Positions 11,051 to 59,612 of a stretch of 64,000 nt of DNA are shown piece after piece. The stretch comes from Candidatus Poribacteria bacterium (lineage in GTDB: Bacteria > Poribacteria > WGA-4E > UBA9662), in the NCBI GenBank assembly GCA_036339735.1, contig JAYZAL010000087.1:11820-75819 (forward strand). Reading direction: 5' to 3'. Made by a program: the position numbers and the translations under genes. A model generated the notes under the pieces. It saw nothing but the letters and a program-made list of their open reading frames with translations, had not been told where the DNA came from and made no database searches. The number at the start of each line of letters is the position of its first letter. Position 1 is the first letter of the stretch.

Positions 11051-12379
11051 ATGAAGATTGCATTTAGGTTCTCGATTATTTATCTTTGCCTATTTATCTC
11101 ATTTATTTCTTATAGTCATGATCTACCTTGGCTAACAGCTCCCTACCTACAGAACGTGAAACCAAATGGAATCACTATCATGTGGGAAATTAGAGAAAAA
11201 AAAGACATTTACATTAATTACAGTACCGATCAGGCTTTAAAGAAATCAAAGCAGGCTAGATCAACTAATTCCAAGCACGATTCACACATATACAAGGTTG
11301 AGCTCATAAATTTGAAGCCGGGGACGACATACTATTACAGGTTGAGCCATGAGGATATGCATTCATATATAAGAACATTTCGAACAGCGCCTCTATCGCC
11401 TCAACCCTTTAGCTTTGGTGTTTGGTCTGATAGTCAAGGTCATAATCGAGGTGTATATAATATAGACATTCACGAACCAACAAAAAGTATGATGAAGCAC
11501 ATGGCTGATAGCGGTGTGGATATTGCGTTGACTGCAGGAGACCTTGCGGAAAATGGAGGGAACTATCAGGATGTCCGAAATTACTTTCTCGATCGTATAG
11601 CAAAATACCTTGGACAATCTGTTCCATTCTTCCCTGCCTGGGGAAATCATGAACCTAATCGGCAAGACATAATCAGAAAGTTTGCCGATACACCGGCAAA
11701 AAACCGTACTGGTATGGACCCGGGATGGGGCAGTTATTCCTTCGATTATGCTGGAGTTCATTTTATCTGTATAGATTTCAGTACAATGAAAGAGGATATA
11801 AAAACGTGGCTGGAGGATGATTTAAAATCCTCTTTATCAAACAATCCACGTTACACTTTTTTATTCATCCATATACCACCATACTGTGAGCTCTGGATCG
11901 ATGGAGATAAGTGGCTACGCTCACGTTTAGTGCCTTTATTAGAACAGTATGGAGTTGATGCTGTGTTCAGTGGACATACACATGAGTACGAACGTGGTTA
12001 CAAGGAGCACGTCCACTACATCATAACTGGTGGTGGTAGTTGGTTAGATTGGGAAGAGCCGATTGTAAAAGACTGGGAACACATGTTTGTTGGTGGAGCA
12101 AAAAACTTGGCGGAATTTCGCCACGGTCTCATTAACGAATATGTACGAGTAGATGTTGAAATGGATGAGTGGATCGGTTCTATGCATGCATTTCAACCAA
12201 ATGGAGACTACATAGGTGTACGTGATCGCTTTGGATCTATGCTGAAAGATGCTAATGGTGATGGATTATTAACGGGACCAGAACGTATTATGCCATCAAA
12301 CTACTTGACGGGTATGCCTTCAGATGCTAGGAAAATTGGTGTTAACGATCCAACGAAAAAAAAGAAAAATGCAGAATAA
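11051..12379 (+). CDS. Secreted purple acid phosphatase-like metallophosphoesterase with N-terminal FN3-like domain
   Basis: Signal peptide, PYLQ, LKPGTTYYYR, WSDSQ, AGDL, GNHE, SGHTHEYER. Confidence 0.85.
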   Translation: MKIAFRFSIIYLCLFISFISYSHDLPWLTAPYLQNVKPNGITIMWEIREKKDIYINYSTDQALKKSKQARSTNSKHDSHIYKVELINLKPGTTYYYRLSHEDMHSYIRTFRTAPLSPQPFSFGVWSDSQGHNRGVYNIDIHEPTKSMMKHMADSGVDIALTAGDLAENGGNYQDVRNYFLDRIAKYLGQSVPFFPAWGNHEPNRQDIIRKFADTPAKNRTGMDPGWGSYSFDYAGVHFICIDFSTMKEDIKTWLEDDLKSSLSNNPRYTFLFIHIPPYCELWIDGDKWLRSRLVPLLEQYGVDAVFSGHTHEYERGYKEHVHYIITGGGSWLDWEEPIVKDWEHMFVGGAKNLAEFRHGLINEYVRVDVEMDEWIGSMHAFQPNGDYIGVRDRFGSMLKDANGDGLLTGPERIMPSNYLTGMPSDARKIGVNDPTKKKKNAE

Positions 12380-12875
12380 TAGAAGTATAGTTGCCCAAGA
12401 ATTTTACGTCATATTCTTTTACTATGCATTCCAGAAAGTATCCAGATTTTGTTTGAAGAAAGTAGAGAGCCTTTAGGAGTAAGATGAGTACGTATATAGA
12501 AAAAACTTCTGTCAAACAGAGAAAGCTTCTCCATTTAAGTGAATAAGGTCTGAATTGATAGTACACGACTCAACTAATTTTGTACTTGACATACTACTCA
12601 CGAACTTAACATCGAACTCAAAACTCATCTTGTTGATGGACAGTCCTACTTCGTTTAATTTAAGTTGGGTTACGATGTAGACTATGATGTTCAATTGAGT
12701 GGTAGAGGTTTTGTTACTTATTTCAAGATCATCTAATCTTAACCTTTCAAATTCTGGGAAGTGGAGTCTTTGAGATGATAGATACTCAGCATTCTTCTCT
12801 GATACAAGATAAAGTAAGTGAAAAATTGCATGTAGATGAAGATAAAATCATGCATATGGAACTGAGTTGTCACCA

Positions 12876-12998: not shown

Positions 12999-13027
12999 TT
13001 GAAGGGTGAACGGAGGTATGATATAAT
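12999..13027 (+). promoter_or_regulatory. Sigma70-type promoter of the moeB-alr unit
   Basis: TTGAAG-N17-TATAAT with extended TG at 13019-13020; supports ATG 13059 as the start. Confidence 0.6.
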
Positions 13028-13058
13028 TCTCTCGCTTGAACTCGGTGTAAAAACAGCT

Positions 13059-14237
13059 ATGAAATCTTCCAGAGACCTAATCGCTTCTGCAAAACAAGAG
13101 ATACCCGAAGCTTCCGTTTCAGAAGTGAAACAGAAAATTGACGGTGGTGATGATTTTGTTTTGCTTGACATTCGTGACAATGATGAATATCGAGCAGGCT
13201 ATATTCCTTCAGCTGTCTACATAAGCCGTGGCATGTTAGAGCTAGAAATAGAGGATTACGTTCCTGATCGAAACCAAGAAATTGTCTTGTATTGTGCCGG
13301 TGGAGTTCGTTCATTATTAGCGGCTCAAACGCTCAAATCATTGGGGTATACACGGTTAATCTCTATGTCTGGTGGCTTCAGAGACTGGCTTAGTAGTGGT
13401 AATGCAGTTGACAAGCCTGTTGCTATGACGACGGAGCAAATGGAACGTTATAGTAGACACTTCATGCTTCGTGAGATTGGTGAAGCTGGACAGGCCAAAT
13501 TATTGGACTCGCGTGTGTTACTGATTGGGGCTGGTGGATTAGGTTCGCCAGCGGGGGTATATCTGGCCGCAGCTGGTGTGGGAACTTTGGGTATTGTTGA
13601 TTCTGATACGGTAGACCTTAGTAATCTGCAACGCCAGATCCTGCACTATACCGCTGATGTCAGTAAACTGAAAGTTGATTCGGCTATTGAAACCATTCAG
13701 GCGATGAATCCGGATGTGAACGTAATTCGACATGCGTTTCGTTTGGATGAGTCTAATGTGATGGATATTTTCAATGATTATGAAGTAATAGTTGATGGAA
13801 CAGATAACTTTGCGACCCGATATTTAGTTAATGATGCAGCGGTTTTGGCCAAAAAACCAGTGGTTCACGGTAGTATTTTCCAATTCGAAGGGCAGCTAAC
13901 AGTTTTTGACACTAACCAAGGACCTTGTTACCGTTGCTTATTTCCTTCACCTCCACCACCAGGCTTAGTACCTGGCTGAAACGAAGCTGGTGTACTGGGC
14001 GTGCTCCCAGGAACGATTGGTGTTCTGATGGCAACAGAAGCAATGAAGCTACTACTAGACGGTGGAAATCCCTTAGTTGGCCGCCTCATGACTTACGACT
14101 CAATGTCGATGAAGTTTCAAGAATTCAAGGTAAGTCGTGACCAAGATTGTGTAATTTGCGGTACTACTCCACAGCTAACGCAACTTCTACCGGACTATGA
14201 GACTTACGCGGACACTGGCCAACTATCCATTCCTTGA
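13059..14237 (+). CDS. moeB: Rhodanese-MoeB/ThiF adenylyltransferase fusion, probable selenoprotein (TGA 13977-13979 read as Sec307)
   Basis: Rhodanese YCAGGVRS; ERYSRH, GAGGLGSP, DLSNLQRQ, GPCYRC; PPPPGLVPG*NEAGVLGVLPG continues in frame into track ORF 14001..14237, which carries the second CxxC (CVIC). Confidence 0.88.
13995..14010 (+). promoter_or_regulatory. Candidate bacterial SECIS hairpin of moeB
   Basis: CTGGG-CGTGCT-CCCAG at +16..+31 after the TGA, GU in the loop. Confidence 0.6.
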
Positions 14238-20369: not shown

Positions 20370-21632
20370 ATGCTGTTATTAAATAAAGTTAAAATCTACG
20401 TTCTATTACTATTTGTTATGTTGTCTGCCAGCACCTTAGTACGAGTTCAGGCCTATGCAGCCAGCCACCCACCAACCTCTGAGGTCAATACTACCGGACT
20501 AGCAGTTACTAATGACACGGTGACTGTGGGACAACTTCATTCGATTACCGGAACAATGGCAATAAGTGAGACTGGATCAGTCGAAGCTGAGCGTCTAGCT
20601 ATATCGCAGATTAATGCAATGGGTGGAGTCCTTGGGCGAAAAATTGAGATCATCCAAGAAGATGGTGCATCGGATTGGCCAACCTTCGCAGAAAAGTCAA
20701 AAAAGTTAATTATCAAGGATAAAGTCGCGTGTGTTTTTGGGTGTTGGACCTCTGCTTCCCGAAAAGCGGTGCTTCCCATATTCGAGAAAGAAAATAACAT
20801 GCTTTACTACCCAACTTTCTACGAAGGTTTAGAAGCTTCCAAAAACGTTGTTTATACTGGTCAGGAAGCGGTTCAGCAGATTCTTTGGGGACTTGATTGG
20901 GCTTACGAAAATTTGGGCGCGCGTACTTTTTACCTAATTGGCTCTGACTACATATGGCCGCGCACCTCAAACAAGATTGCTCGTAACCATATCGAACGGT
21001 TTTTAAAGAAAAAAGATCCCAAGTGTAAGGTTGTAGGTGAAGACTACTATCCCCTTGGTCATACTAATTTCCGTTCTTTAATCAATAAAGTTAAATTAAA
21101 GAAACCTGATTTGATCTACAGTATAGTCGTGGGTGGAAGTAACGTCGCATGGTACAAGCAACTTAAAGCAGCTGGAATAACTTCCAAAAAATATAATTTG
21201 CTTACTATTTCGACGACTGAGGATGAATTGCTAGGTATCGGAGGTGAAAATGCTGAAGGTTTCTATGCTTGCATGAAGTATTTTCAATCTCAGGAAAATC
21301 CCAATAATCAGGCCTTCGTAAAAGCATTTAAGGAAATGTGGGGCGACGATTCTGTAATCGGAGACGTTACTCAGGCAGCATATCTTGGACCTTGGATTTG
21401 GAAAGCTGCAGTTGAAAAAGCAGGAAGCTTTGACATAGACAAAGTGCATGCTGCTCACCCCGGCATTGAATTGCCAGACGCTCCGGAAGGATATGTACGT
21501 GTACATGAAACTAACCAACATCTGTATAGTCGAGCAAAAATTGGAAAGATCAGAAAAGATGGTCAGTTTGATGTAATGGCGATTTCCGAAGACTTAATTG
21601 AGCCCGACCCATTCCCAGAGGGATACCAGTAA
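20370..21632 (+). CDS. urtA: Urea/short-chain amide ABC transporter substrate-binding protein
   Basis: VGQLHSITGTMAISE, EDGASDWPTFAEK, FGCWTSASRKAV, YPTFYEG, GSDYIWPR; AGGAGG RBS. Confidence 0.92.
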   Translation: MLLLNKVKIYVLLLFVMLSASTLVRVQAYAASHPPTSEVNTTGLAVTNDTVTVGQLHSITGTMAISETGSVEAERLAISQINAMGGVLGRKIEIIQEDGASDWPTFAEKSKKLIIKDKVACVFGCWTSASRKAVLPIFEKENNMLYYPTFYEGLEASKNVVYTGQEAVQQILWGLDWAYENLGARTFYLIGSDYIWPRTSNKIARNHIERFLKKKDPKCKVVGEDYYPLGHTNFRSLINKVKLKKPDLIYSIVVGGSNVAWYKQLKAAGITSKKYNLLTISTTEDELLGIGGENAEGFYACMKYFQSQENPNNQAFVKAFKEMWGDDSVIGDVTQAAYLGPWIWKAAVEKAGSFDIDKVHAAHPGIELPDAPEGYVRVHETNQHLYSRAKIGKIRKDGQFDVMAISEDLIEPDPFPEGYQ

Positions 21633-21660
21633 ACAATCGGTTAATCTATTGTTTTGATAG

Positions 21661-21711
21661 TATTCGTGGGGTTTACTGCTCAATGTGCTAGTGTGGTGGA
21701 TCCCATGAATA
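21661..21711 (+). other. Long G-U-rich intercistronic hairpin after urtA
   Basis: TATTCGTGGGGTTTACTGC pairs with GTGGTGGATCCCATGAATA through several G-U pairs on the plus strand. Confidence 0.55.
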
Positions 21712-21759
21712 ACATCAAAGTGTTTGGGGATGGTTTAGCAATAGATAAAGGAATATTAA

Positions 21760-22683
21760 ATGGGTGATTATACAGCAGCAGAAATTTACGCGATTGTGGC
21801 CATGCAAGGGTTTAGCGGAGTTAGCCTGCTTTGCATTTATGTTCTCATGGGCCTTGGCCTCTATATAATTTTTGGTCAAATGGGTGTTATCAACATGGCT
21901 CATGCCGAATTCTTGGTTCTTGGCTCATATACCATGTGTCTATTTTCCGAGTTTGTGACAAAGAATGTTCCTTTTTTAACCACCTACTATGTCATCCTGG
22001 CAATTCCGTTATCCTTCATCATCGCTTTTGGTGTTGGATATTTGGTTGAATGGATCTTGATCAGTCGTCTTTATCAAAGACCTCTTGACACCTTACTTGC
22101 AACATGGGGATTAAGCCTGATAATGCAACAGTCTTTCAGGACTTTTATTGGTGCACGTGAGAGAAGCGCGGATTTGCCAGAATGGCTTCTGGGGTCATGG
22201 GCCGTTACCGATATGATCGAAATTCCGATCAGTGGGCTCGTTCTACTTTTTCTCACTGTTCTACTAACCGTTGGTTTAATTGCCTACACGCAAAGGTCGC
22301 GTATGGGGCTGCGGATGAGAGCCACAACACAAAATCGTCAAATGACTAGTGCCTTGGGAATCAATACTAAGATGACTGATCGTGTTACTTTTGGGATTGC
22401 TTGTGGGATTTCTGGGATTGCTGGAGCTTTTTTTACAACCATAGCTTCCACCTCTCCGTCAGCCGGAACTAACTATATTGTTGATTCGTTTTTGGTTCTA
22501 GTTGTAGGTGGATTGGGCAGTTTGTTGGGACTCTTCATATCTGGAGGTTTCCTTGCGTTGCTTTCATCGATCTTGGAATTTTTCATGACTGGTTCAATTG
22601 CCAAGGTCTGGCTCTACATCATTATATTTGCTGTTTTGATGAAATTCACCCGTGGTCTTTTTTCGGAAAGAATTCGCTCATAA
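21760..22683 (+). CDS. urtB: Urea/amide ABC transporter permease
   Basis: IFGQMGVINMAHAEF, RPLDTLLATWGLSL, YIVDSFLVLVVGG. Confidence 0.92.
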   Translation: MGDYTAAEIYAIVAMQGFSGVSLLCIYVLMGLGLYIIFGQMGVINMAHAEFLVLGSYTMCLFSEFVTKNVPFLTTYYVILAIPLSFIIAFGVGYLVEWILISRLYQRPLDTLLATWGLSLIMQQSFRTFIGARERSADLPEWLLGSWAVTDMIEIPISGLVLLFLTVLLTVGLIAYTQRSRMGLRMRATTQNRQMTSALGINTKMTDRVTFGIACGISGIAGAFFTTIASTSPSAGTNYIVDSFLVLVVGGLGSLLGLFISGGFLALLSSILEFFMTGSIAKVWLYIIIFAVLMKFTRGLFSERIRS

Positions 22684-22716
22684 ACCAATATTATTATTCT
22701 CCATTATTAGTCAATT

Positions 22717-23868
22717 ATGAATCTTTACGATCGACTTTTTAAAAACAAAGAAGGTTTAGCGGCCTTCATCATCTTGGCCATTATACTACTGGTTATTCTT
22801 CCAGTTTCACTTAATGTTTTTCGACTGAATCTGACTGGTAAATACTTGTGTTACGCTTTCGTAGCAATTGGTCTTGTAATGTGCTGGGGCAATTCTGGCA
22901 TTCTCAGCCTTGGTCAGGGGTTATTCTTCGGAATTGGTGGATATTGTATGGCCATGTTTCTAAAACTTGAAGCCTCTGACCCAGAAAGCACCTCCATTCA
23001 AACTACGCCGGGAATTCCAGACTTCATGGATTGGAACCAGGTTACCGAATTACCTTGGTTTTGGTACCCGTTCAAGAACTTAGCCTTAACTCTGTCTCTG
23101 ATCTTGATTCTACCTGTACTAATGGCTTTTATATTGAGTTTCTTTTACTTCAAGGGGCGTGTTACAAATGTGGTTTTTGCCATTCTTACTCAGTCAATGG
23201 TCGCCTGCCTTTGGTATTTCATCGTAGGCAACCAAGGTTACTTTGGAGGAATCAATGGTATTACTGACTTGAAAACTCTCCTAGGCTGGGATATACGACC
23301 TGAATCAGCACAGAAAAGCCTATATTACGTCTGCGCAATTTTACTTCTTTTTTGTATTCTTGCCAGTAGATATATTTTGTCGACTCGTCTGGGACGTGTA
23401 TTAGTTGCTCAACGTGATAAGGAAATGCGTGTTCGTTTCACGGGATATAACATTACGTCTTTCCGTATTTTCGTTTTCTGCTTTGCCGCCCTGCTTAGTT
23501 CAATTGGAGGTGCATTGTTCACCCTGCAGGTTGGATTCATGTCTCCTAATTTGATTGGTATCCAGCCATCTATCGACATGGTCATTTTTACAGCTGTTGG
23601 TGGACGAGAGAGCCTTCTTGGTGCAGTCTATGGCGCTTTAGCAGTTAATGCTGCTAAAACTGCTTTCTCGGAAGCCTATCCCGGGTGGTGGCTGTTTTTA
23701 TATGGTTCTACATTCATCGTTATTGTTCTCTTTTTACCTAGGGGTTTAGCTGGACTATATGAAAGTAATATTAGAGGATGGATCTCTAAGTTGAGAAAAA
23801 GAACTGAACCCGAATCCACACCTGTTATTAGTCAACTAGAAGAGGAGGGATCGAATGCGATCGAGTGA
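22717..23868 (+). CDS. urtC: Urea/amide ABC transporter permease
   Basis: GKYLCYAFVAIG, GILSLGQG, PDFMDWN, AVGGRESLLGAVYG. Confidence 0.92.
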   Translation: MNLYDRLFKNKEGLAAFIILAIILLVILPVSLNVFRLNLTGKYLCYAFVAIGLVMCWGNSGILSLGQGLFFGIGGYCMAMFLKLEASDPESTSIQTTPGIPDFMDWNQVTELPWFWYPFKNLALTLSLILILPVLMAFILSFFYFKGRVTNVVFAILTQSMVACLWYFIVGNQGYFGGINGITDLKTLLGWDIRPESAQKSLYYVCAILLLFCILASRYILSTRLGRVLVAQRDKEMRVRFTGYNITSFRIFVFCFAALLSSIGGALFTLQVGFMSPNLIGIQPSIDMVIFTAVGGRESLLGAVYGALAVNAAKTAFSEAYPGWWLFLYGSTFIVIVLFLPRGLAGLYESNIRGWISKLRKRTEPESTPVISQLEEEGSNAIE

Positions 23869-24628
23869 CACCGATTATGTACTGGCCATAGAGAATTTGA
23901 CAGTTAGTTTCGATGGCTTTAAAGCCGTCGACGATCTTACTCTCTATATTGACCAGGGAGAATTAAGAGTAATTATCGGACCTAATGGGGCTGGAAAAAC
24001 TACGGTTTTAGATCTAATCAGCGGTAAGACTTCTGCAACCTCCGGAAGTATCCGCTACAACCCGTATGCACAAAAAAAGGGTAGAAACATAGAGCTTACC
24101 GAAATGCGTGAACATGAAATCGTTCGTGCCGGAATCGGGAGAAAGTTTCAAACACCATCGATCTACGAGAGTCTGACGGTATTTGAGAATCTTGAAATTT
24201 CTTACCCCCGTGGACGAACAGTGTTGGGCTCATTGACCTTTCAAAGATCAGAGGAAGTAATGGATCGTATTCGTGAAGTGGCTGAAGCGATATTTCTGAT
24301 TGAGATGCTAGATTCTCAAGCTGAGCTTTTAAGCCATGGACAGAAGCAGTGGCTAGAGATAGGTATGCTGTTGGTACAAAGTCCAGATTTAATAATGCTA
24401 GATGAGCCAGTTGCTGGGATGAGTGCCAAAGAACGTGATGCAACAGCCGAGCTGCTGCGCGAGGTTTCTAAGGAACACTCGGTGCTGATTATCGAACATG
24501 ATATGGATTTTGTGGCCAAGATAGCAGATCAGGTGACCGTGCTTCACTTGGGACAAATTATCATGGAAGGGACAATGGAAGAAATTCAAAACGATTCAGT
24601 CGTACAAGAAGTCTACCTTGGACATTAA
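23855..24628 (+). CDS. urtD: Urea/amide ABC transporter ATP-binding protein
   Basis: VSFDGFKA, GPNGAGKT, GRKFQTP, LSHGQKQWLEIGM. Confidence 0.93.
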   Translation: MRSSDTDYVLAIENLTVSFDGFKAVDDLTLYIDQGELRVIIGPNGAGKTTVLDLISGKTSATSGSIRYNPYAQKKGRNIELTEMREHEIVRAGIGRKFQTPSIYESLTVFENLEISYPRGRTVLGSLTFQRSEEVMDRIREVAEAIFLIEMLDSQAELLSHGQKQWLEIGMLLVQSPDLIMLDEPVAGMSAKERDATAELLREVSKEHSVLIIEHDMDFVAKIADQVTVLHLGQIIMEGTMEEIQNDSVVQEVYLGH

Positions 24629-24665
24629 TAATTAGATAATTAACCAAAACTAAGAGTAATTAATT

Positions 24666-25358
24666 ATGTTCCACATAAAAAATCTTAAAGTCGGTTATGG
24701 TGAGAGCACGGTAATCAGCGGATTGGACTTGGATCTTGGTGAAGGAGAGATTCTAGCCATAATGGGTCGCAACGGAATGGGTAAGACCACATTGTTCAAA
24801 TCCGTCATCGGTATTTTAGATTGTGGCAATGGCTCTAGTATCAAAATCGGCGAGCAAGAATTGGCAGAGGCCCCTAGTTTCATGCGGGTTCGTCGGGGGT
24901 TAGCCTATGTCCCACAAGGTAGGATGATTTTTCCAAGTATGACTGTGAAGGAAAATATTGAAATAGGAATGGATACCACGGATCTAAATGAGGTTCCTGA
25001 TTATATTTATGAGCTGTTTCCAGTGTTGGACGAAATGGGGAAACGTAAAGGCGGAAATTTATCAGGTGGCCAGCAACAGCAATTAGCAATTGCTCGGGCT
25101 TTAGTCACAGAACCAAAAGTATTACTTTTGGATGAGCCAACCGAGGGAATTCAACCATCAATAATCAAGGAAATGGCCCAAAAACTTAAAGTGATCAGAG
25201 ACATGCATGGTATTTCTATTATCGTAGCAGAACAAGTTCTGTCTTTTACTTTGGATGCTTGTGATCGTTTTTTAGTTATGGAAGGTGGATCAATTGTTCA
25301 TTCTAGTGATCGAAAGGAGGTGGACGCGGAAAAAATTAAAAGTTTCCTTTCCGTATGA
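24666..25358 (+). CDS. urtE: Urea/amide ABC transporter ATP-binding protein
   Basis: GRNGMGKTT, YVPQGR, LSGGQQQQLAIARAL, DEPTEGIQPSII. Confidence 0.93.
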   Translation: MFHIKNLKVGYGESTVISGLDLDLGEGEILAIMGRNGMGKTTLFKSVIGILDCGNGSSIKIGEQELAEAPSFMRVRRGLAYVPQGRMIFPSMTVKENIEIGMDTTDLNEVPDYIYELFPVLDEMGKRKGGNLSGGQQQQLAIARALVTEPKVLLLDEPTEGIQPSIIKEMAQKLKVIRDMHGISIIVAEQVLSFTLDACDRFLVMEGGSIVHSSDRKEVDAEKIKSFLSV

Positions 25359-25644
25359 TTAACAGGTTTAAGATTCATCATTTAAATGAGTTTATTAGGC
25401 AAAAAAACAAAAACTAGATTTTGTCAAATAGCTCACCTACGGATATAGTGGTCGAATTTTGGCTGATAACACGGAAGTTCAGCCGGAATCTTTGTTGAAG
25501 GGAACTTCGGGTTTTACTCCGGTATGTTTGAAACAGTAGAAAAAGACAGTGTTCAGAGAAGGTAGTATGTTTTCATTGATACGATTTTGAATCAAAATAA
25601 ACCACAGCGTAAGTTTAGTTTTTTTATATTTATAGGATTTTAAT

Positions 25645-26895
25645 ATGGCCGAAACTAATAAGCCTACTTCACTTATTCGAGTTGATTTAAACCAGAGTCC
25701 TTACGAGAATGAGAATGTCCATAATCGATGGCATCCTGACATTCCAATGGTAGCGACCGTTAAGCCAGGTGATGATTTCGTGGTTGAGTGTTATGATTGG
25801 ACTGGAGGGCAAATCAAGAATGACGACTCAGCTGAAGATGTCCGTGATGTAGATCTTGGGCAAGTCCACTTTTTATCTGGACCCATAGAGATAGAGGGGG
25901 CTGAACCTGGTGATTTACTACAGGTTGACATCTTGGATATTGGTGCATTTTATGAGTCTAGCTGGGGATTTAACGGTTTCTTCAGCAAAAAAAATGGCGG
26001 TGGATTTTTAACCGAGCATTTCCCTGAAGCACAGAAATCTATTTGGGACTTTAATGGTATGTTCACCAAATCTCGACATATACCCGGTGTCGAGTTTGCA
26101 GGTTGTTTGCATCCTGGACTGATTGGTTGTCTACCAGACAGAAAAATGCTAGACATGTGGAACACTCGTGAAAAGGAATTATACGATACAGATCCTGATC
26201 GTGTTCCTGAACTAGCAACATTACCGCAAGCACGCGTAGCACATATGGGACGTATGCCGGCAGATGAAGCCAAGATTGCGGCAGCTGAGGCGGCAAGGAC
26301 AGTTCCTCCAAGGGAGCACGGTGGTAACTGTGACATCAAAGATTTATCTCGTGGCTCGACGGTTTACTTTCCGGTCTATCAAAATGGTGCTGGCCTCTCT
26401 ATGGGCGACATACATTTTAGTCAAGGTGATGGTGAGATCACATTCTGTGGTGCCATTGAAATGGCCGGTTGGCTCCATCTGCGTGTGAACTTAATTAAAG
26501 ATGGAATGGAAAAGTACAGTGTTAAAAATCCGATTTTTAAACCCAGCCCAATAGTACCTAAGTATGATGATTACCTGATTTTTGAGGGTATTTCTGTTGA
26601 TGAAGATGGGAGGCAGCATTATTTGGATGTTCATATCGCATATCGTCAAGCTTGTTTAAATGCGATTAGCTACTTGACCAAGTTTGGCTACAGCGAGGCT
26701 CAGGCCTATGCTATTTTGGGTTGTGCACCTGTTCAGGGACATATCAGTGGTGTAGTTGATATCCCTAATGCATGTGCAACACTCTGGCTGCCTACTGATG
26801 TATTTGATTTTGACGTTCAAATCAATCCAAATGGACCAGAGAAGCATGTCGACTCCTCCTTAATTGATGTCCCTCTTGCACCAGACCTTGAGTAA
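25645..26895 (+). CDS. fmdA: Formamidase (acetamidase/formamidase family)
   Basis: HNRWHPDIP, DWTGGQI, PPREHGGNCDIK, GDIHFSQGDGEITFCGAIEM, GVVDIPNAC. Confidence 0.95.
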   Translation: MAETNKPTSLIRVDLNQSPYENENVHNRWHPDIPMVATVKPGDDFVVECYDWTGGQIKNDDSAEDVRDVDLGQVHFLSGPIEIEGAEPGDLLQVDILDIGAFYESSWGFNGFFSKKNGGGFLTEHFPEAQKSIWDFNGMFTKSRHIPGVEFAGCLHPGLIGCLPDRKMLDMWNTREKELYDTDPDRVPELATLPQARVAHMGRMPADEAKIAAAEAARTVPPREHGGNCDIKDLSRGSTVYFPVYQNGAGLSMGDIHFSQGDGEITFCGAIEMAGWLHLRVNLIKDGMEKYSVKNPIFKPSPIVPKYDDYLIFEGISVDEDGRQHYLDVHIAYRQACLNAISYLTKFGYSEAQAYAILGCAPVQGHISGVVDIPNACATLWLPTDVFDFDVQINPNGPEKHVDSSLIDVPLAPDLE

Positions 26896-26923
26896 CCAAA
26901 ATAAAGTTAATTAGGAGCAATTT

Positions 26924-27268
26924 ATGCCACTCTATGAATATAAATGCAGAGAACATGGAATCTTCTCAGAATTAGCTACTTTAGCTGATAGTGCACACCC
27001 CACAGATTGCCCCCAATGTGGGGCAACCTCTCCTCGGATACTGACCTTGTCGCCTCGTGTAGTTTTAGCTCTCAAGGAAGGTGTGAGTATTAAGGCAATA
27101 GAACGTAATGAGAAGGCTCAAAATGAACCAGAGGTTTCCACCGTGGATAGGCGACAAAACGACGATAAACATATCATTGGTAAAAGTATAGGCAAGTCTA
27201 AAGTTATATATACTGCTGACGGAAAGAAAATGTTTCCCTCTATGAGGCCTTGGATGATAAGTCACTAG
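26924..27268 (+). CDS. fmdB: FmdB family zinc-ribbon protein
   Basis: MPLYEYKCREHG...CPQCG...RPWMISH directly after fmdA; AGGAG RBS. Confidence 0.88.
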   Translation: MPLYEYKCREHGIFSELATLADSAHPTDCPQCGATSPRILTLSPRVVLALKEGVSIKAIERNEKAQNEPEVSTVDRRQNDDKHIIGKSIGKSKVIYTADGKKMFPSMRPWMISH

Positions 27269-27795: not shown

Positions 27796-28296
27796 ATGAA
27801 TAAGCAGCAAATAGATCGTGTGATCGATAAAGCAAAGTACCTTTGCGAACGTTCGGGGACACGTTTGACAGAGAAGCGCAGAAGCGTTTTAGAACTTTTA
27901 CTGGTTTCCAATATACCTTTATCGGCCTATGAAATTACTGATGCTTATAATCAGATCGATGAAAAACCCATTCTGGCAATGTCAGTATATCGCATTTTAG
28001 AATTTCTCGAGTCAGAGAACTTGGTGCACAAACTAAGTTCAACCAATAAATACGTCGCTTGTTCCCATATCACTTGTGGGGAGGTGCACGGAATCCCACA
28101 ATTTTTAATTTGCGGTGAATGCCAAATCACTAGAGAAATCGCGTGTGGTGGATGTAAGGATGAGAAAGAAATATCAATTTCCAAAAGCGTGATTGATGAG
28201 CTAGGTAAACTGGTTGGTAAAGCGGGTTACACGCTTATAAATTCACAATTGGAGTTACGGGTCCTCTGTAATAACTGCTCGGTGAGTAAGGCTTAA
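27796..28296 (+). CDS. zur: Fur-family zinc uptake regulator, copy 1
   Basis: RLTEKRRSVLELL, SAYE, VYRILEFL, YVACSH, FLICGEC, LCNNC; Zur box upstream. Confidence 0.85.
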   Translation: MNKQQIDRVIDKAKYLCERSGTRLTEKRRSVLELLLVSNIPLSAYEITDAYNQIDEKPILAMSVYRILEFLESENLVHKLSSTNKYVACSHITCGEVHGIPQFLICGECQITREIACGGCKDEKEISISKSVIDELGKLVGKAGYTLINSQLELRVLCNNCSVSKA

Positions 28297-28298
28297 CC

Positions 28299-28355
28299 CT
28301 GTCGAATTACTTTTGTCAATCACCTGAATCCATCACCAAAAGAGAATTTACATCA
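28299..28355 (+). pseudogene. Relic of the hisI 5-prime end
   Basis: Aligns codon for codon with hisI from 30145 (MLNRFYKSLESITTGEFIS vs LSNYFCQSPESITKREFTS), same 2-nt gap after the zur stop, ATG changed to CTG. Confidence 0.6.
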
Positions 28356-28679
28356 TCCACCTGGCATCGAATGATGTTGGAGGAGTCTGAATACTTTTCA
28401 AGGTGTAAAAAGTTACTTTTCGCGGTGGGGGTATTTCATCATCTTGGCTTCTCTAGCACGTGTTTATACACGATTGGCAGCCCAAGCTGAAAATATCAAC
28501 TAACATCAAGCCAGACCCTTGCAACGGTCTTAATCGGCTAACAAGATTATTATTGAAATTGGCCAACTCTCTTGTGTGACAGATTTAAGACCTATTTAGC
28601 CAAAATCTAAAGTCGAAAAGGACTTTGGTTGAATTATGTGGGCTGGTTAACAGGGCAGATTTGGGTCTCTAATATCAAT

Positions 28680-28714
28680 CAAAGCGGGGAAGTTTAATCA
28701 ACTTCCCCGCTTTG
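28680..28714 (-). terminator. Terminator-like hairpin downstream of the His/Asp mini-lipoprotein
   Basis: Perfect 15-bp stem CAAAGCGGGGAAGTT-TAATC-AACTTCCCCGCTTTG just past the stop; short U-tracts on both strands. Confidence 0.7.
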
Positions 28715-28737
28715 GTTCGATCCACCCAAGAACTTAT

Positions 28738-28947
28738 TTATTTTGTTCCATCGTCATGATCATCATCTTGGTCATGATCGTCGTGATCATCATCGTCGTG
28801 ATCATCATCGTGGTCATGATCGTCGTGATCGTCGTGATCGTCATCGTCTGTATCACAGGCAGTGATTAAGAACATCGAACTAAACAGCAATATAAAGAGC
28901 ATCAGCCCAATAAAAACTGGCTTAAATCTGAGACTAGCCAACGTCAT
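28738..28947 (-). CDS. Small His/Asp-rich lipoprotein, putative zinc-binding
   Basis: AGGAGG 9 nt before ATG 28947, signal peptide with ITAC lipobox, mature CDTDDDDHDDHDDHDH...DGTK; Zur box upstream and hairpin downstream. Confidence 0.8.
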   Translation of the reverse strand: MTLASLRFKPVFIGLMLFILLFSSMFLITACDTDDDDHDDHDDHDHDDDHDDDDHDDHDQDDDHDDGTK

Positions 28948-28961
28948 TGTTATAAACCTCC

Positions 28962-29031
28962 TTGACAAAGGATTTGGTAATCAATAAAATATGTTATGTT
29001 ATAACATAACATATTGGGCGGGTTTTTACAA
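28962..29031. promoter_or_regulatory. Overlapping opposite-strand sigma70 promoters with a perfect palindromic Zur box
   Basis: 28-bp palindrome AATATGTTATGTTA-TAACATAACATATT (28988-29015); plus strand TTGACA-N17-TAAAAT (28962-28990); minus strand TTGTAA-N17-TATGTT (29031-29003). Confidence 0.8.
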
Positions 29032-29162
29032 CCCCCACCCAAACAGGTACTCTCAGATGGACAACCAGCAATCAGATCGAATTTGTTTTAACACATCACC
29101 ATCGGCTTACAGAAAAGCTCGAATTAAGTCTTGGAATCCGTTTCCGAAGCTAAGGAGCTAGT

Positions 29163-29600
29163 ATGACCGAAATTACACCTACGTCATCTTCTTTAGTAGA
29201 TGATGCTCAGACAGCTCGGCCCTCTGTACTTCACGTATGCACATCTTGTAGAACACCCGGCTCACCACGTGAGCCAGAAGAGAATCGAGCAGGTTTTAAA
29301 CTATATCAAGAACTTTCCACGGTTTTTCGAGACAGTACGTTGGGACACCATGTGAAGGTTCAGCCTACCGTCTGCCTCAACGTGTGCTCACGCCACTGTG
29401 GGATCGCGCTCTCTTCCCCTGGTGCCTGGAGTTATATCTTCGGAGACCAAAACCCAAGTGAGAGTACAAGTGATATCGTAGAGTGTTTGTCGATCTACAT
29501 CGGCACCGAAGATGGAGTCATGCGACGAGAGAAGCGTCCTAAGTCTCTTCGAACAAGTATATTGGGGCGTGTGCCACCCCAAGGTGGAATTACTGAGTGA
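29163..29600 (+). CDS. DUF1636-like Cys-rich thioredoxin-fold metal-binding protein
   Basis: LHVCTSCR, VCLNVCSRHC, WSYIFGD, GRVPP; AAGGAG RBS. Confidence 0.75.
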   Translation: MTEITPTSSSLVDDAQTARPSVLHVCTSCRTPGSPREPEENRAGFKLYQELSTVFRDSTLGHHVKVQPTVCLNVCSRHCGIALSSPGAWSYIFGDQNPSESTSDIVECLSIYIGTEDGVMRREKRPKSLRTSILGRVPPQGGITE

Positions 29601-29638
29601 GCAATTCATTTTTGAGTGATGACAGCAAACGTTTTCAT

Positions 29639-30142
29639 ATGAATAGAAAGCAACTCAATCACGTTCTCGATAGAGTAAAAGAGATTTGTACCCGTTCTGG
29701 CTGGCGTCTGACCGAAAAGCGCAGAGGTGTTTTAGAACTTTTGCTAATGTCCGATGTTCCTTTGTCGGCCTACGAAATCACTGATGCTTACAATCAGATC
29801 GCCAAAAAATCGATCACAGCCATGACCGTATACCGGATTGTGGGATTTCTCGAGTCAGAAAATTTGGTACACAAACTTAATTCAACCAATAATAAATACG
29901 TTGCCTGTTCCCATATTGCTTGTAGACAAGCGCACGAAATCCCACAATTTTTAATTTGTGGTGAATGCCAAACTACCAAAGAAATCGCATGTGGTGGATG
30001 CCCAGATGAGAAAGAAATATCAATTTCCAAAAATGTGATTGATGAGCTAAGCAAACTGGCCAGTAGGGCAGGTTACAGGCTTATAAATTCGCAATTGGAA
30101 CTGCGGGTTCTCTGCAATAACTGCTCGGTGAGTAAAGCTTAG
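29639..30142 (+). CDS. zur: Fur-family zinc uptake regulator, copy 2
   Basis: Close paralog of 27796..28296; ATG 29639 shares the TTTTCATATGAATA context with copy 1 (GTG 29597 is the alternative start). Confidence 0.85.
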   Translation: MNRKQLNHVLDRVKEICTRSGWRLTEKRRGVLELLLMSDVPLSAYEITDAYNQIAKKSITAMTVYRIVGFLESENLVHKLNSTNNKYVACSHIACRQAHEIPQFLICGECQTTKEIACGGCPDEKEISISKNVIDELSKLASRAGYRLINSQLELRVLCNNCSVSKA

Positions 30143-30144
30143 CT

Positions 30145-30582
30145 ATGTTGAATCGTTTTTATAAATCGCTTGAATCTATTACTACAGGGGAATTCATTTC
30201 GCTTGACGAATGCGTTAAACACTTGACTTTTAATAACCAAGGTTTAATCCCTGTAGTGACACAGTGTTACCATAGTAAAGATGTACTAATGCAAGCTTGG
30301 ATGAACCGAGCGGCAATTGAAAAAACGTTGACCTCTGGACTGATGACCTACTGGTCTCGTAGTCGTCAAGAGTTCTGGGTGAAAGGCGAAACCAGTGGTC
30401 ATACTCAACAGTTGGTGGATATGCGCTTTGATTGCGATGGAGACACCATCCTATGTCAGGTTAAGCAGATGGGCTCAGCTTGTCATACTGATCGCCCCAA
30501 CTGTTTTTACTTGCAGGTCGATACCGATAATCAAGTGGTAAAATTGCATAAAGCAGATCAAGACAAGAGTGATCAATCATGA
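30145..30582 (+). CDS. hisI: Phosphoribosyl-AMP cyclohydrolase, copy in the Zur-controlled operon
   Basis: GLIPVVTQ, YWSRSRQEFWVKGETSGH, DCDGD, ACHTDRPNCF. Confidence 0.93.
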   Translation: MLNRFYKSLESITTGEFISLDECVKHLTFNNQGLIPVVTQCYHSKDVLMQAWMNRAAIEKTLTSGLMTYWSRSRQEFWVKGETSGHTQQLVDMRFDCDGDTILCQVKQMGSACHTDRPNCFYLQVDTDNQVVKLHKADQDKSDQS

Positions 30583-30707
30583 TTAAAATCAAAATGATCC
30601 GTGTCAAACCCCTTCTGTATTGGAGTGTCTGGAGTCGTATGGGGTTGGCACTGTTTCTAAGCCTGATTATGTGGGCATTGGTATTAGGAATTATCCGTTC
30701 ATCATGA
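30579..30707 (+). CDS. Small 42-aa single-pass membrane protein (below the ORF-track cutoff)
   Basis: MIKIKMIRVKPLLYWSVWSRMGLALFLSLIMWALVLGIIRSS; ATGA overlaps with both the hisI stop and the ABC ATPase start. Confidence 0.72.
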   Translation: MIKIKMIRVKPLLYWSVWSRMGLALFLSLIMWALVLGIIRSS

Positions 30708-31447
30708 GTATTCAACTTAATAACCTTACGCTTACCTATGGGCGACATCCAGCAGTACATCATGTGACAGCGTCTATCGCCCAAGGAGATTGGCTAGCCA
30801 TTGTAGGACCCAATGGTGCAGGGAAATCGACTCTGCTGAATGCTATGGCTGGGCTAACTACAGTTCATCAGGGTGGAGTTGAAGGTAGCATTGAAGGTTT
30901 ATGTCCAAATGCGGTGGCCTATCTACCACAGCAAACACAGTTAGATAAAAGTTTCCCCATCAACGTGTTTGAGCTAGTAGTAACAGGCTTATGGGCTGAA
31001 CTTGGTTTTTCAAAGTCCGTGACTAGGAAACAATATGATCAATGTGCAGATGCGATAGCAGCGGTAGGCTTACAAGGTTTCGAAGACCGCATGATCAATA
31101 CACTTTCCGGTGGGCAATTACAACGCAGCCTGTTTGCACGAGTCCTTCTACAAGACCAATCAGTGATCTTATTGGATGAGCCTTTTAACGCAATTGATTC
31201 AAAAACCTTAGCTGATCTGACTGACGTAATACAGCAATGGCATCAAAATAAGCGAACCGTAATCATGGTGACGCATGACCTTGAATATGTGCAACAAAAC
31301 TGCCCCAAAACCATGTTGCTAGCACGAGAGTGCATTGGGTACGGCTTAACCGAAGATGTTCTTACCCGAAAAAATTTAAAGCGGGCAAGACAAATTTCTG
31401 AAGCATTTGATGACCATGCTGAATTATGTGTACAAGGTATAGCATGA
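30704..31447 (+). CDS. znuC: Zinc ABC transporter ATP-binding protein (ZnuC/AztA-like)
   Basis: GPNGAGKST, AYLPQQ, LSGGQLQR, LLDEPF, VTHD; ATG 30704 preferred. Confidence 0.85.
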   Translation: MSIQLNNLTLTYGRHPAVHHVTASIAQGDWLAIVGPNGAGKSTLLNAMAGLTTVHQGGVEGSIEGLCPNAVAYLPQQTQLDKSFPINVFELVVTGLWAELGFSKSVTRKQYDQCADAIAAVGLQGFEDRMINTLSGGQLQRSLFARVLLQDQSVILLDEPFNAIDSKTLADLTDVIQQWHQNKRTVIMVTHDLEYVQQNCPKTMLLARECIGYGLTEDVLTRKNLKRARQISEAFDDHAELCVQGIA

Positions 31448-31448
31448 T

Positions 31449-32315
31449 ATGAATGCACTATTAATTGGCCCCTTCAGTGATTATGTTTTTATGCAACGTG
31501 CGTTAGTCGGTAGTCTTGCCGTTTGTCTGGGTTCTGTACCTGTGGGAATATTTATGACATTACGACAAATGAGCTTAACAGGTGATGCTATGGCTCACGC
31601 CATACTGCCGGGGGCAGCCATAGCCTATTTGCTGTCAGGTTTATCTTTGGTGGCGCTTACCTTGGGGGGGCTGGTAGCGGGGCTCGTAGTAGCAGCACTG
31701 GCAGGTTGGGTTGCACGCAGTACTCACCTTAAGGAGGACACTAGTCTCGCGGCCTTTTATTTAGTCTCTCTAGCCTTAGGTGTTTTAGTGATTTCACTCA
31801 AGCACAGTAACGTGGACTTGTTTCATGTACTCTTTGGTAATATTTTAGCCCTCGATAACGCAGCATTATGGTTGTTAGCTAGTATAGCTACGATCAGTAT
31901 GGTGTTTATGGCTTTTTTATATCGCTCTTTGGTAATTGAATGTGTCGACCCTTCGTTTTTGCGTCGTTCCAGCAAGGCGAGCTCAATCGCCCATTACGGT
32001 TTTTTATTTTTAATGGTAATTAATTTAGTAGGAGGCTTTCATGCCCTAGGCACATTGATGGCAATTGGTATCATGATTTTACCCGCAGCAGCGGCCCGAT
32101 TTTGGGCGAAAACATTGGATGGCATTCTCACGACCTCTATACTAATGAGCTTTGCAGGTTGTTATGCTGGTCTATTACTCTCTTTCTACTTTGATTTACC
32201 TGCGGGCCCGGCCATTGTACTTTCATTGGGTATGGTTTACATGACCTCGATATTTATTGGTTTCAATGGTGGATTGCTTGAAAAATACTATTCGGGCAGC
32301 CACCTTACGGGATAA
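31449..32315 (+). CDS. znuB: Zinc ABC transporter permease (ZnuB/AztB-like)
   Basis: FMQRAL, GDAMAHAILPG, HVLFGNIL, LPAAAAR, PAGPAIVL. Confidence 0.87.
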   Translation: MNALLIGPFSDYVFMQRALVGSLAVCLGSVPVGIFMTLRQMSLTGDAMAHAILPGAAIAYLLSGLSLVALTLGGLVAGLVVAALAGWVARSTHLKEDTSLAAFYLVSLALGVLVISLKHSNVDLFHVLFGNILALDNAALWLLASIATISMVFMAFLYRSLVIECVDPSFLRRSSKASSIAHYGFLFLMVINLVGGFHALGTLMAIGIMILPAAAARFWAKTLDGILTTSILMSFAGCYAGLLLSFYFDLPAGPAIVLSLGMVYMTSIFIGFNGGLLEKYYSGSHLTG

Positions 32316-32319
32316 CACT

Positions 32320-33207
32320 ATGTATCAGATAAAAAGATTTTTAAAATCAATGTTTCTATGCCTATTTTTTTTGGCAAATGTCGTCAGCGCTGGCGACTCA
32401 AGTATTCGTGTTGTCACCAGCTTTTCTATTTTGGAAAACTTAGTCAACGAGTTAGGTGGTCAATACGTCAGTGTGATAAATCTAGTTAGTCGAAATAGCG
32501 ACGCGCATATGTATCAACCCAAACCCTCCGATGCCGTTTCTATTGCAAAGGCTGACTTGGTCGTCTTCAACGGACTGGGGTTCGAAGGCTGGATTCCACG
32601 TCTAATAAAAAATAGTGGCTACAAAAATAAACAAATTATTGCGAGTGAGGGCGTTGATGCCATTAAGAATGGTAAGGAGATTGACCCACATGCCTGGCAG
32701 AGTTTTCACAACATTCGTCTGTATGTCCAAAATATTACTCAGGCGTTGATAGAGCTTAGGCCACAGCATGTAAAAGCCTTAACCAAACGTCAGCAGAAAT
32801 ATCTAGGCTCGATAAGCAATTTAGAAAAGCGTCTCAAAAAACAGTTTGCAAGTATTCCCTCGAATAAACGTATTGTCGTGACTAGTCATGATGCATTTGG
32901 TTATTTAGGACGTGAGTTTAATATTCGGTTTCTAGCACCACTTGGGCTAAGTATAGAAGTCGAAGCTTCAGCTGAGGATGTGGCCGCCATTATCGATCAG
33001 ATACGTGAGCAAAATGTCAAAGCACTCTTTGTAGAAAATATCAATAATCCGCGCTTGTTAGAGCTGATTTCTGCCGAGACGAATGTTGCCATCGGTGGTC
33101 GTCTCTATTCGGACGCATTAAGTGAAATCAAAGGTCCAGCAGACACATATTTAAAAATGATGCGACATAATATCGAGTCGTTAATCAATAGATTAAATAC
33201 CCATTAA
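32320..33207 (+). CDS. znuA: Zinc ABC transporter substrate-binding protein (cluster A-I)
   Basis: DAHMYQP, NGLGFEGW, DPHAW, SHDAFGY, LYSDAL; no His-rich loop. Confidence 0.85.
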   Translation: MYQIKRFLKSMFLCLFFLANVVSAGDSSIRVVTSFSILENLVNELGGQYVSVINLVSRNSDAHMYQPKPSDAVSIAKADLVVFNGLGFEGWIPRLIKNSGYKNKQIIASEGVDAIKNGKEIDPHAWQSFHNIRLYVQNITQALIELRPQHVKALTKRQQKYLGSISNLEKRLKKQFASIPSNKRIVVTSHDAFGYLGREFNIRFLAPLGLSIEVEASAEDVAAIIDQIREQNVKALFVENINNPRLLELISAETNVAIGGRLYSDALSEIKGPADTYLKMMRHNIESLINRLNTH

Positions 33208-33238
33208 ATTTAGGGGTGAATAAAGTTAAGGAGTCAAG

Positions 33239-34681: not shown

Positions 34682-34708
34682 GCAAAACGGTACAAGGCGA
34701 ATTTCTGT

Positions 34709-35146: not shown

Positions 35147-35191
35147 TCACAAGTTTATTTGATTCAGAGGAATGAATGTGAGGTTAAAACT

Positions 35192-35806: not shown

Positions 35807-35837
35807 TCATTATTTTTCATTTTCAGTGGTGAATCAC

Positions 35838-58517: not shown

Positions 58518-59612
58518 ATGACCAGAAAAAGACGTTCATTCTCAGTTGTTGTGATGATCTTAGTTTGTTCTCTGATTCTGCACTTTGGTTGTGGCGAGTC
58601 AGTAGACGAAACATCAGACGTTACTGCTGATGACCAAACCCAACCGATGGGTAGTATCAAGGGTAACATTCAACCATCTGGAATAGAAGCCAAACTAGAG
58701 CTGATAAAAAACGGCCAAATAGTAAGATCAAGCGATACTGACAAAGCCGGCCAGTTTGTCTTTGCCGACTTAGAGTTTGGAACCTACCAGATTAGAGTCA
58801 TCAGTGATGGTTATCAAACAGAGGAAAAAGTGGTTCCAGCTGAGTTACAGCAAACTGAACTCGTCATGGAACTGAAATTGAAACCACTACCGGCTCAGTT
58901 GAGTGGTATTGTCATTGACTCAGAAGGTGAATTCATTTCAGGAGCGACAGTAACACTTGGTGGTCAGACTCAAACAACTAACGACTTGGGTGTCTTCCGG
59001 TTCGATAAACTAGAAGCTGGTACCGAACTAGAAATAACTGTTGTTGCCGAATCAATGCTACCGAGAACCGTCGAAGTTGGCCCCATTGCTAGAGGTGAAT
59101 CGAGCAAAATTCAGGTGGAACTAGAACCAGAAGTGATCGAAGAAGATGATGGCGCTGAAGTTGGGGATATGGCCCCCATATTTTCTCTGCTAGACACAAG
59201 TAATCAGAAAGTGTCACTATCAGATTATGCTGGGAAAAAGAACATCTTGCTAACCTTTAGTCGGGGTAAGTTGTGACCGGTTTGTGCACCGCAACTGGTT
59301 CAGTTGCTAAAACCCAACTACAAGCAAATTGCTAATTTAGACACTGAAGTGATTGCCATAAGTCCTTGGTCAGTAGCAGAAAATAAGGCCTTCAGGCAAC
59401 AACATAAACTGCCATTCCCCTACCTGGCTGATCTTGGAGCTGACGTTATCCGTCAATACGACGTGTTGGACTTTCAGCCATTGCCAAAAGTATCTTTCTT
59501 TCTGATAGATAAAGCTGGGAAAATTCATTGGAGATCCACTCATAGTGGTGGCGACCCAAATGACCTACCCCAGATTGATGAACTGCTAGAGGGTCTCAAA
59601 AAAATACAATAA
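58518..59612 (+). CDS. Lipoprotein with two carboxypeptidase-regulatory-like domains and an AhpC/TSA (Prx-like) domain, probable selenoprotein (TGA 59274-59276 read as Sec253, UPVC)
   Basis: HFGC lipobox; VGDMAPIFSL...LLTFSRGKL*PVCAPQL continues in frame into 59304..59612 (VIAISP, LPFPYLAD, FLIDKAGKI). Confidence 0.88.
59291..59307 (+). promoter_or_regulatory. Candidate bacterial SECIS hairpin
   Basis: GCAACTG-GTT-CAGTTGC, perfect 7-bp stem at +15..+31 after the TGA. Confidence 0.7.

Follow-up and report, generated by a model that had tools for sequence, protein, structure and literature searches.

Rhodanese-MoeB fusions such as Uba4/MOCS3 and the mycobacterial MoeZR/MoeBR adenylate and thiocarboxylate the sulfur carriers Urm1, MOCS2A, MoaD or CysO. 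A 'MoeB' family with selenocysteine (Sec) was described from 11 Sargasso Sea sequences by Zhang, Fomenko and Gladyshev in 2005 (PMC1088965; here and below, statements on the literature refer to the available parts of the cited articles). In the Global Ocean Sampling (GOS) data this family counts 19 Sec sequences and 2,262 Cys homologues (PMC2398784), and the reviews PMC9312934 and PMC13188914 list it with one representative accession, MBT7809913.1. Here we describe a gene with such a site in a stretch of 64,000 nucleotides (64 kb; called the window) from contig JAYZAL010000087.1 of a Candidatus Poribacteria bacterium. The gene, at positions 13059..14237 of the window, encodes a rhodanese-MoeB protein and carries a TGA at codon 307. 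We hold with high confidence that it is one functional gene, in which UGA 307 is most likely recoded as selenocysteine. Its features, all on the + strand, are the following (SECIS, selenocysteine insertion sequence):

13059..14237, +, rhodanese-MoeB gene, 392 codons plus stop, single internal TGA
13116..13394, +, rhodanese domain, residues 20-112, Pfam PF00581, E 2.4e-19
13293..13295, +, TGT codon of Cys79 in the six-residue loop CAGGVR, presumed rhodanese persulfide carrier
13449..14150, +, ThiF/MoeB E1-like adenylation domain, residues 131-364, Pfam PF00899, E 2e-82
13926..13937, +, first zinc-site CxxC, C290/C293, aligned with E. coli MoeB C172/C175 (manual count)
13977..13979, +, in-frame TGA, codon 307, proposed crossover-loop selenocysteine
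13995..14010, +, proposed bacterial SECIS hairpin CUGGG-CGUGCU-CCCAG, 15 nt after the UGA
14148..14159, +, second zinc-site CxxC, C364/C367, 3' of the TGA, aligned with E. coli MoeB C244/C247 (manual count)
14235..14237, +, true stop TGA, no matching hairpin context (TAA/TAG in the orthologues L002-L011)

The Sargasso Sea sequences, which were compared by eye only (supplementary file 1 of PMC1088965), resemble the Poribacteria gene closely around the site. U is found at the same loop position in 11/11 of them (...LVPS-u-[AS]V[AS]GVLGVLPG), both CxxC motifs are present as in the Poribacteria gene, and the nucleotides after the TGA are by eye nearly the same (e.g. ...CCTGGGCGTGCTCCCGGG...). GTG occurs there in 11/11 sequences, GGC in 10/11 and CTC in 9/10 that are visible, and the third pair of the stem is mismatched in four entries. 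However, in the entries that are long enough the rhodanese domain is C-terminal, which is the MoeBR arrangement of PMC3227635, whereas that of the Poribacteria protein is N-terminal. In addition, the Poribacterial motif uNEAGV has 0 occurrences among them. An earlier reading of the window, made by a model from the letters alone (the sequence-only reading), had mentioned that Sec forms of MoeB were predicted from marine metagenomes, and the text and supplement of PMC1088965 agree with it.

The domain order also separates the Poribacteria protein from the other described fusions. Uba4/MOCS3 and MoeZR/MoeBR consist of the same two modules, but in reversed order and with Cys instead of Sec; the C-terminal rhodanese that characterizes them (PMC3227635) is not found here, as the rhodanese domain at residues 20-112 precedes the ThiF domain. 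E. coli MoeB (1JW9/1JWA/1JWB) and ThiF (1ZFN, 1ZUD) share the adenylation fold and the zinc CxxC pairs and are without a rhodanese domain. The same N-terminal rhodanese is found in the family NF006444 (PRK08762), 'molybdopterin-synthase adenylyltransferase MoeB'. Plasmid-borne members of this type are 45-51% identical to the Poribacteria protein, but have TGC/Cys at the site and no hairpin. Several of them adjoin genes for MoaD/ThiS, YcaO, TfuA, a methyltransferase and LanM, whereas the Poribacteria gene is without such neighbours. The Poribacteria gene thus has the same kind of Sec site as the Sargasso Sea family, in another subfamily whose two domains are arranged the other way round.

The finding is not new in kind, since Sec-MoeB has been known since 2005. 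What is added is the subfamily with N-terminal rhodanese, the conservation across the sampled Poribacteria and the widespread mis-annotation as fragments of 306 aa. Poribacteria are not named for the MoeB selenoprotein family in the available parts of PMC1088965, PMC2398784, PMC9312934 and PMC13188914, and a literature search of limited coverage found no publication describing a Poribacteria rhodanese-MoeB selenoprotein gene. With the gene described here, a known selenoprotein family would gain a phylum, sponge symbionts included, and a second domain architecture.

A rhodanese-MoeB gene with one internal TGA

Apart from the TGA at 13977-13979, the frame is open from the ATG at 13059, and the residues around the TGA read PPPPGLVPG-TGA-NEAGVLGVLPG. 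This start matches the N-termini of all relatives (MKSS/MRSS). A TTG start at 12999, which the list of open reading frames (ORFs) gives, is backed by no relative and was rejected. The match to PF00899 scores 276.4 bits (cut-off 28.1) and covers profile positions 1-236 of 238 without a break across the TGA. NF006444 is matched with 534.7 bits against a cut-off of 449, residues 5-383 aligning with positions 4-382 of 387. In the adenylation domain, the nucleotide loop GAGGLG aligns with GLGGLG of E. coli MoeB (chain 1jw9_B). In the rhodanese domain, C79, G82, R84 and S85 are invariant in the alignment of close relatives, and the catalytic role of Cys79 would follow from the family (PMC3227635).

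The sequence-only reading had proposed a 392-aa sulfur-carrier activating enzyme with a Cys rhodanese, read in one frame through the TGA, in which the part after the TGA supplies the second CxxC. All of this held. The frame continues to the stop at 14235-14237, C364/C367 align with the C-terminal CxxC of 1jw9_B, and the architecture was recovered by both Pfam and NF006444.

The TGA occupies the position of the crossover-loop cysteine

Among solved structures, the best matches were Uba4 (6yub, 1.4e-56), E. coli MoeB (1jw9, 9.2e-56) and ThiF (1zfn, 1.5e-50). Position 307 corresponds to Cys187 of E. coli MoeB when aligned with chain 1jw9_B (manual count), and it also aligns with the crossover-loop Cys of the Uba4 chain 6yub_A; a Cys at this site of the MoeB family, as the sequence-only reading had stated, is thus seen in both. 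In Uba4 of Chaetomium, the crossover-loop Cys C202 is the active-site residue and forms a thioester with Urm1 (PMC7527816), and the same role is stated for C225 of yeast Uba4 (PMC6007339). The persulfide of the rhodanese Cys then attacks this Uba4-Urm1 thioester (PMC7527816; PMC6007339). That the aligned loop Cys of 6yub_A would be the C202 of PMC7527816 is a step of our own, made from the alignment.

To see which residue homologues have at this position, 8000 candidates of a protein homologue search were scored and the best 120 were examined. Among these, 108 are full-length and all have Cys at the site (99 counted by pattern, 8 by a looser pattern and P0066 by eye); the closest of them are 55-61% identical. 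The other 12 end just before the site. They are exactly 306 aa long, 71-100% identical to the read-through product, and their last residues are ...PPPPG[LM]VP[GS], the site being the next residue. The names of several refer to Candidatus Poribacteria, for instance 'molybdopterin biosynthesis protein MoeB [Candidatus Poribacteria bacterium]'. Among the Cys forms, P0006, P0009 and P0030 are longer (500-519 aa), and P0006 has rhodanese domains flanking the MoeB domain on both ends.

A search of genome contigs with the alignment of close relatives gave 15 loci. Full-length Poribacteria orthologues with 64-96% identity are found in 11 of them (L001-L011), while L012-L015 hold rhodanese genes that stand alone or belong to other fusions, and these loci entered none of the counts. 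Codon 307 is TGA in 12/12 sequences, i.e. in the window and in 11/11 full-length loci, and in all 11 orthologues the frame continues after it with [NS]EAGVLGVLPG and a conserved C-terminal region. These loci represent 11 assemblies besides the window, four of them chromosome-level records (OZ242326.1, OZ242351.1, OZ240245.1 and OZ245030.1). L001 runs collinear with the window for 21 kb, with a nucleotide identity of 91.5-93.7%, so that the window belongs to a close relative of the L001 assembly. In contrast to these TGA codons, six plasmid Cys-form homologues have TGC at the site. The stop codon is TAA or TAG in 10/11 orthologues, so their genomes do not simply use TGA as a sense codon; within the window, TGA ends 10/38 family-supported ORFs.

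The pairing of TGA and Cys that the sequence-only reading had expected in orthologues was thus found, with TGA in 11/11 orthologues and Cys in 108/108 full-length homologues, and the TGA is not unique to this assembly, which had been named as a point that would speak against Sec. Its expectation that pipelines would break the gene was right as well, as seen from the split in the ORF list and from the predicted 306-aa proteins in public sets.

Three orthologues (L004-L006) are without the second CxxC, where NRS..W..GQPHP replaces ..DC.IC (codons ~360-372, locus ~11080-11120), whereas both the TGA and the first CxxC are retained in them. This is reminiscent of how CxxC motifs were lost in the MoeZ type (PMC3227635).

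An invariant hairpin follows the TGA

The proposed SECIS hairpin has a 5-bp stem (13995-13999 and 14006-14010) and a 6-nt loop, CGUGCU (14000-14005). The UGA and the loop are 20 nt apart, and the energy is -7.5 kcal/mol. Bacterial SECIS (bSECIS) elements are described by a loop of 3-9 nt, a stem of 4-16 bp, a G among the first two loop bases, a distance of 16-37 nt from UGA to loop and a minimum free energy of at most -7.5 kcal/mol (PMC13188914). The hairpin lies within all these limits, with G as second loop base, followed by U, and with an energy exactly at the limit.

Codon conservation was analysed in the 12 sequences over codons 1-365, which contain 174 amino-acid-invariant degenerate columns. 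Only 5/174 are invariant at the codon level, and four of the five are the consecutive codons 313-316 (CTG GGC GTG CTC), which make up the 5' arm and the loop and begin the 3' arm. A run of at least four among five randomly placed invariant columns is rare (permutation p = 2.45e-5). The stem differs in L005 alone, where CCA has become CCG and a U-A pair thereby U-G. These codons are not favoured in this genome of 40% G+C: their usage in the window genes is 0.135 for CTG, 0.183 for GGC, 0.155 for GTG and 0.066 for CTC. In 6/6 plasmid Cys-form controls the hairpin is impossible, as other codons are used for L-G-V-L-P; four of these controls have the exact peptide GVLGVLPG and two a variant of it. 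A second helix predicted at alignment columns 41-58 showed wobble changes only and was not relied on. The hairpin that the sequence-only reading had noticed after the TGA is therefore borne out at 13995-14010 by comparative evidence, its folding energy being unremarkable; the evidence is comparative, not energetic.

A second UGA gene in the window

Another gene in the window has an in-frame TGA followed by a hairpin:

58518..59612, +, second UGA gene, peroxiredoxin (Prx)-like, 364 codons, TGA at 59274-59276
59291-59307, +, hairpin of the second gene, 7-bp stem, loop GUU, 21 nt from UGA to loop, -8.8 kcal/mol

The Pfam domain AhpC-TSA spans this TGA (residues 215-338, E 1.5e-25), and the motif around it reads GKL-U-PVC (UxxC). 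U aligns with Thr, and C256 with Cys, of the archaeal peroxiredoxin 2ywn_A, where we take the aligned site to be a TxxC motif with the peroxidatic Cys. Of three relatives, two end just before the site and one (P0123) has W there, which most likely comes from a TGA read under another code. By its alignment, 58518..59612 is a candidate for a second selenoprotein gene. Its product is secreted or lipoprotein-like, with CarboxypepD_reg domains and the AhpC/TSA domain at the C-terminus, and gene callers cut it to 252 aa (P0124). Five further TGA-interrupted frames, all in stretches of the window without genes (37188-37526, 37463-37687, 35147-35371, 12473-12694 and 12301-12534), had no family match and were dropped.

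How is UGA 307 read?

Several observations weigh against a selenocysteine at codon 307, or against the importance of the residue. Cys187, the loop residue, is dispensable in E. coli MoeB. In yeast Uba4, replacing C225 and C397 by Ser, singly or together, lowers function without abolishing it, and the corresponding Cys of human MOCS3 is non-essential in vitro for adenylation and thiocarboxylation of URM1 (PMC5349211). The role of the loop Cys in relatives is thus disputed, being argued both ways. Neither the 64-kb window nor the 10-kb flanks around L001-L011 contain a selA, selB, selD or tRNA-Sec gene; NCBIfam was run on 45 window ORFs, and ARAGORN, for tRNA-Sec, on the window and the 11 loci. 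No gene for a MoaD/ThiS-type carrier adjoins the rhodanese-MoeB gene in the window or in the six scanned loci L003, L004, L005, L007, L008 and L010. As for the hairpin, its energy is ordinary compared to shuffles (z-scores 0.79 and 0.01; over both window hairpins z is 0.79, 0.01 and -0.99, and neither is singled out). RNAalifold showed no compensatory double changes in it, because the hairpin is invariant. There was also no Rfam match to it, either at the gathering threshold over the whole window or with E up to 10 around the TGAs, where the low threshold gave only chance matches to models of long non-coding RNAs and microRNAs around both sites.

With the Sec machinery not seen in the window or in the flanks, UGA 307 could be read by an ordinary near-cognate tRNA (Trp, Cys or Arg) and the hairpin only stimulate this, so that a full-length protein without selenium would be made. 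That a pipeline can read TGA in this way is seen in P0123, the relative of the second gene that is translated with W. We nevertheless consider this reading improbable. The site is that of a catalytic nucleophile, and each of the 108 full-length proteins in the best 120 homologues has Cys there. Trp or Arg would not conserve function at this position, yet orthologues of 64-96% identity have all retained the TGA. The hairpin agrees with the SECIS model, the G in the loop included, and the combination of UGA and hairpin recurs in the same window at a UxxC redox motif. Moreover, Sec use is reported for Poribacteria, which are among the phyla with Sec-containing variants of [NiFe] hydrogenase (PMC13582414), and the clusters of orthologous groups (COGs) of SelA and SelB are found in the majority of sponge-symbiont bins (PMC5649159).

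Alternatively, the gene might be split or decaying, with a 306-residue fragment and either a separate 78-residue peptide starting from the GTG at 14001 (codon 315) or an untranslated tail. Gene callers using the standard code indeed give two ORFs (12999..13979 and 14001..14237), the best 120 homologues include 12 clusters of 306-aa proteins, and codon 315, the start that a split gene would use, is an invariant GTG. The sequence between the TGA and this GTG argues otherwise. Codons 308-312 encode [NS] followed by E-A-G-V in 11/12 sequences and are conserved through synonymous changes, which means that they are translated in frame. Codons 309-312 (E-A-G-V) change synonymously only, with 2, 4, 3 and 3 codon variants among the 12 sequences, and this rules out re-initiation at codon 315 and decay. 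Divergence between the window and each orthologue over codons 308-362 was 0.016-0.22 at nonsynonymous and 0.18-0.86 at synonymous sites, and their ratio (dN/dS), where computable, was 0.075-0.157, similar to the part upstream. The frame downstream of the TGA is under purifying selection. Furthermore, the ThiF profile continues through the TGA, and a break exactly at the codon of the catalytic Cys in 12 lineages, always as TGA, is not what decay would produce. A split or decaying gene is thus very improbable.

An error of sequencing or assembly, by which a TGC or TGT, one base away, would have become TGA, is already refuted by the same TGA in the 11 independent orthologue assemblies, the four chromosome-level ones and the 93%-identical collinear contig among them.

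Taken together, the conserved UGA-containing rhodanese-MoeB gene is genuine, and its product is most likely a selenoprotein. That a lineage would bear the cost of inserting Sec precisely at residue 307 argues that this residue does chemistry in rhodanese-fused enzymes. The 306-residue fragment of the annotations is without the catalytic loop residue, part of the interface to the dimer partner and carrier, and half of the zinc site; an enzyme annotated in this way would count as broken when pathways of Poribacteria and other marine bacteria are reconstructed. The hairpin offers a very small, sequence-invariant SECIS candidate for study.

Proposed Sec forms and Cys forms in the phylogeny

A tree was built from 70 full-length rows: the 12 Sec forms, every second of the 108 Cys forms (54) and 4 forms from plasmids. 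It does not include L020, L021 or the 12 truncated proteins. The 12 Sec sequences form one clade (support of 99 in the Shimodaira-Hasegawa-like approximate likelihood ratio test, SH-aLRT) nested among the 58 Cys forms.

We also examined the best 120 MoeB-like proteins shorter than 216 residues (P0126-P0245). By a loose pattern, 67 of these end before the loop Cys, two of them visibly earlier. By a strict pattern that demands at least 140 core residues, 60 end at the site, 36 have the loop Cys, 16 end elsewhere and 8 were skipped. Many MoeB-first proteins thus also stop directly in front of this Cys. The label 'Sec or ends at site' was traced on a FastTree phylogeny of 144 MoeB cores, which is weakly resolved over its 170 columns. 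The label has to change 13 times on this tree, and well-supported branches force at least 4 of these changes. This suggests repeated exchange of Cys and Sec at the loop codon, as far as short proteins known from their amino acids can tell. Truncated Sec-MoeB predictions also appear to be very common in metagenome protein catalogues, where the stops are read from the proteins alone.

It is possible, although we find it doubtful, that Sec replaced Cys repeatedly and independently in rhodanese-linked MoeB by way of a 'latent SECIS' in the L-G-V-L-P-G codons. CUN GGN GUN CUN CCN GGN is nearly self-complementary, so that three or four synonymous choices would make a working SECIS whose distance to the loop codon is suitable. 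The single Poribacteria Sec clade within the Cys forms, the 13 label changes and the near-identical hairpin in the published Sec forms with C-terminal rhodanese speak for this view. If it is true, the fixation of Sec across the sampled Poribacteria is a natural experiment, and the loop residue would be a rate-limiting redox or acyl-transfer nucleophile in bacterial sulfur-carrier activation.

Proposed mechanism and gene neighbourhood

We infer Sec insertion, the identity of the carrier and the chemical step of Sec307 as follows, the enzyme mechanism being based on described family members (PMC7527816, PMC5349211, PMC3227635). UGA 307 would be decoded as Sec by SelB and tRNA-Sec, with the hairpin 15 nt downstream as the signal. 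The adenylation domain would adenylate a MoaD/ThiS/CysO-type sulfur carrier with ubiquitin fold at its C-terminal Gly, and Cys79 of the rhodanese domain would carry the persulfide. Residue 307, on the mobile crossover loop, would be the nucleophile, with two conceivable roles. The acyl group may pass to it, giving a selenoester comparable to the thioester of Uba4, before the persulfide attacks; or it may reductively cleave or resolve an acyl-disulfide, as proposed for MOCS3. The carrier would then be released as thiocarboxylate. In either role a selenolate at 307 should be better than a thiolate; it would speed the redox or acyl-transfer step and ease its reversal.

The neighbourhood gave little further information on the pathway. 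MoaE and CysM are likewise absent nearby in the window and in the six scanned loci. Among small ORFs of the MoaD/ThiS type ending with Gly-Gly, in the window and L001-L011, there were two low-complexity matches, which are not credible and were rejected. A moaA gene is located at 62106-63098, 48 kb from the rhodanese-MoeB gene. An alanine racemase gene lies downstream in the window and in L003-L005, and the downstream frame of L001 reads likewise; the other neighbours in the six scanned loci are unrelated and give no pathway clue.

For the Cys-form relatives, 'MoeB' clusters were seen in Mycetohabitans (pBRH01, L016), Rhizobium (L018), Sinorhizobium (pSymA, L019) and Paraburkholderia (L021). 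These contain MoaD/ThiS, YcaO-like and TfuA-like proteins, an S-adenosylmethionine (SAM) methyltransferase, Nif11-type precursors of ribosomally synthesized and post-translationally modified peptides (RiPPs) and LanM, which suggests that they supply sulfur for peptide thioamidation rather than for molybdopterin. In Aliarcobacter, the neighbours of the Cys form are a cysteine synthase, an M67 peptidase and MoaD/ThiS. As the Cys-form relatives are found in YcaO/TfuA or CysO-type clusters, the name 'MoeB' does not fix the function, and the pathway served may be that of molybdopterin, cysteine, thiamin, thio-RNA or thioamide.

Other regions of the window

Elsewhere in the window, 20370-27268 (+) encodes a urea ATP-binding cassette (ABC) transporter (urtABCDE) and, after it, formamidase FmdA and a zinc-ribbon protein of the FmdB type. 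A zinc-limitation island is found at 27796-36872 (+), with two Zur/Fur-like regulators, an AztABC-type zinc ABC transporter and two CobW/ZigA-like GTPases, one of which has a long His/Asp-rich stretch. On the opposite strand, a giant ORF of 3,897 codons occupies 40601-52294 (-).

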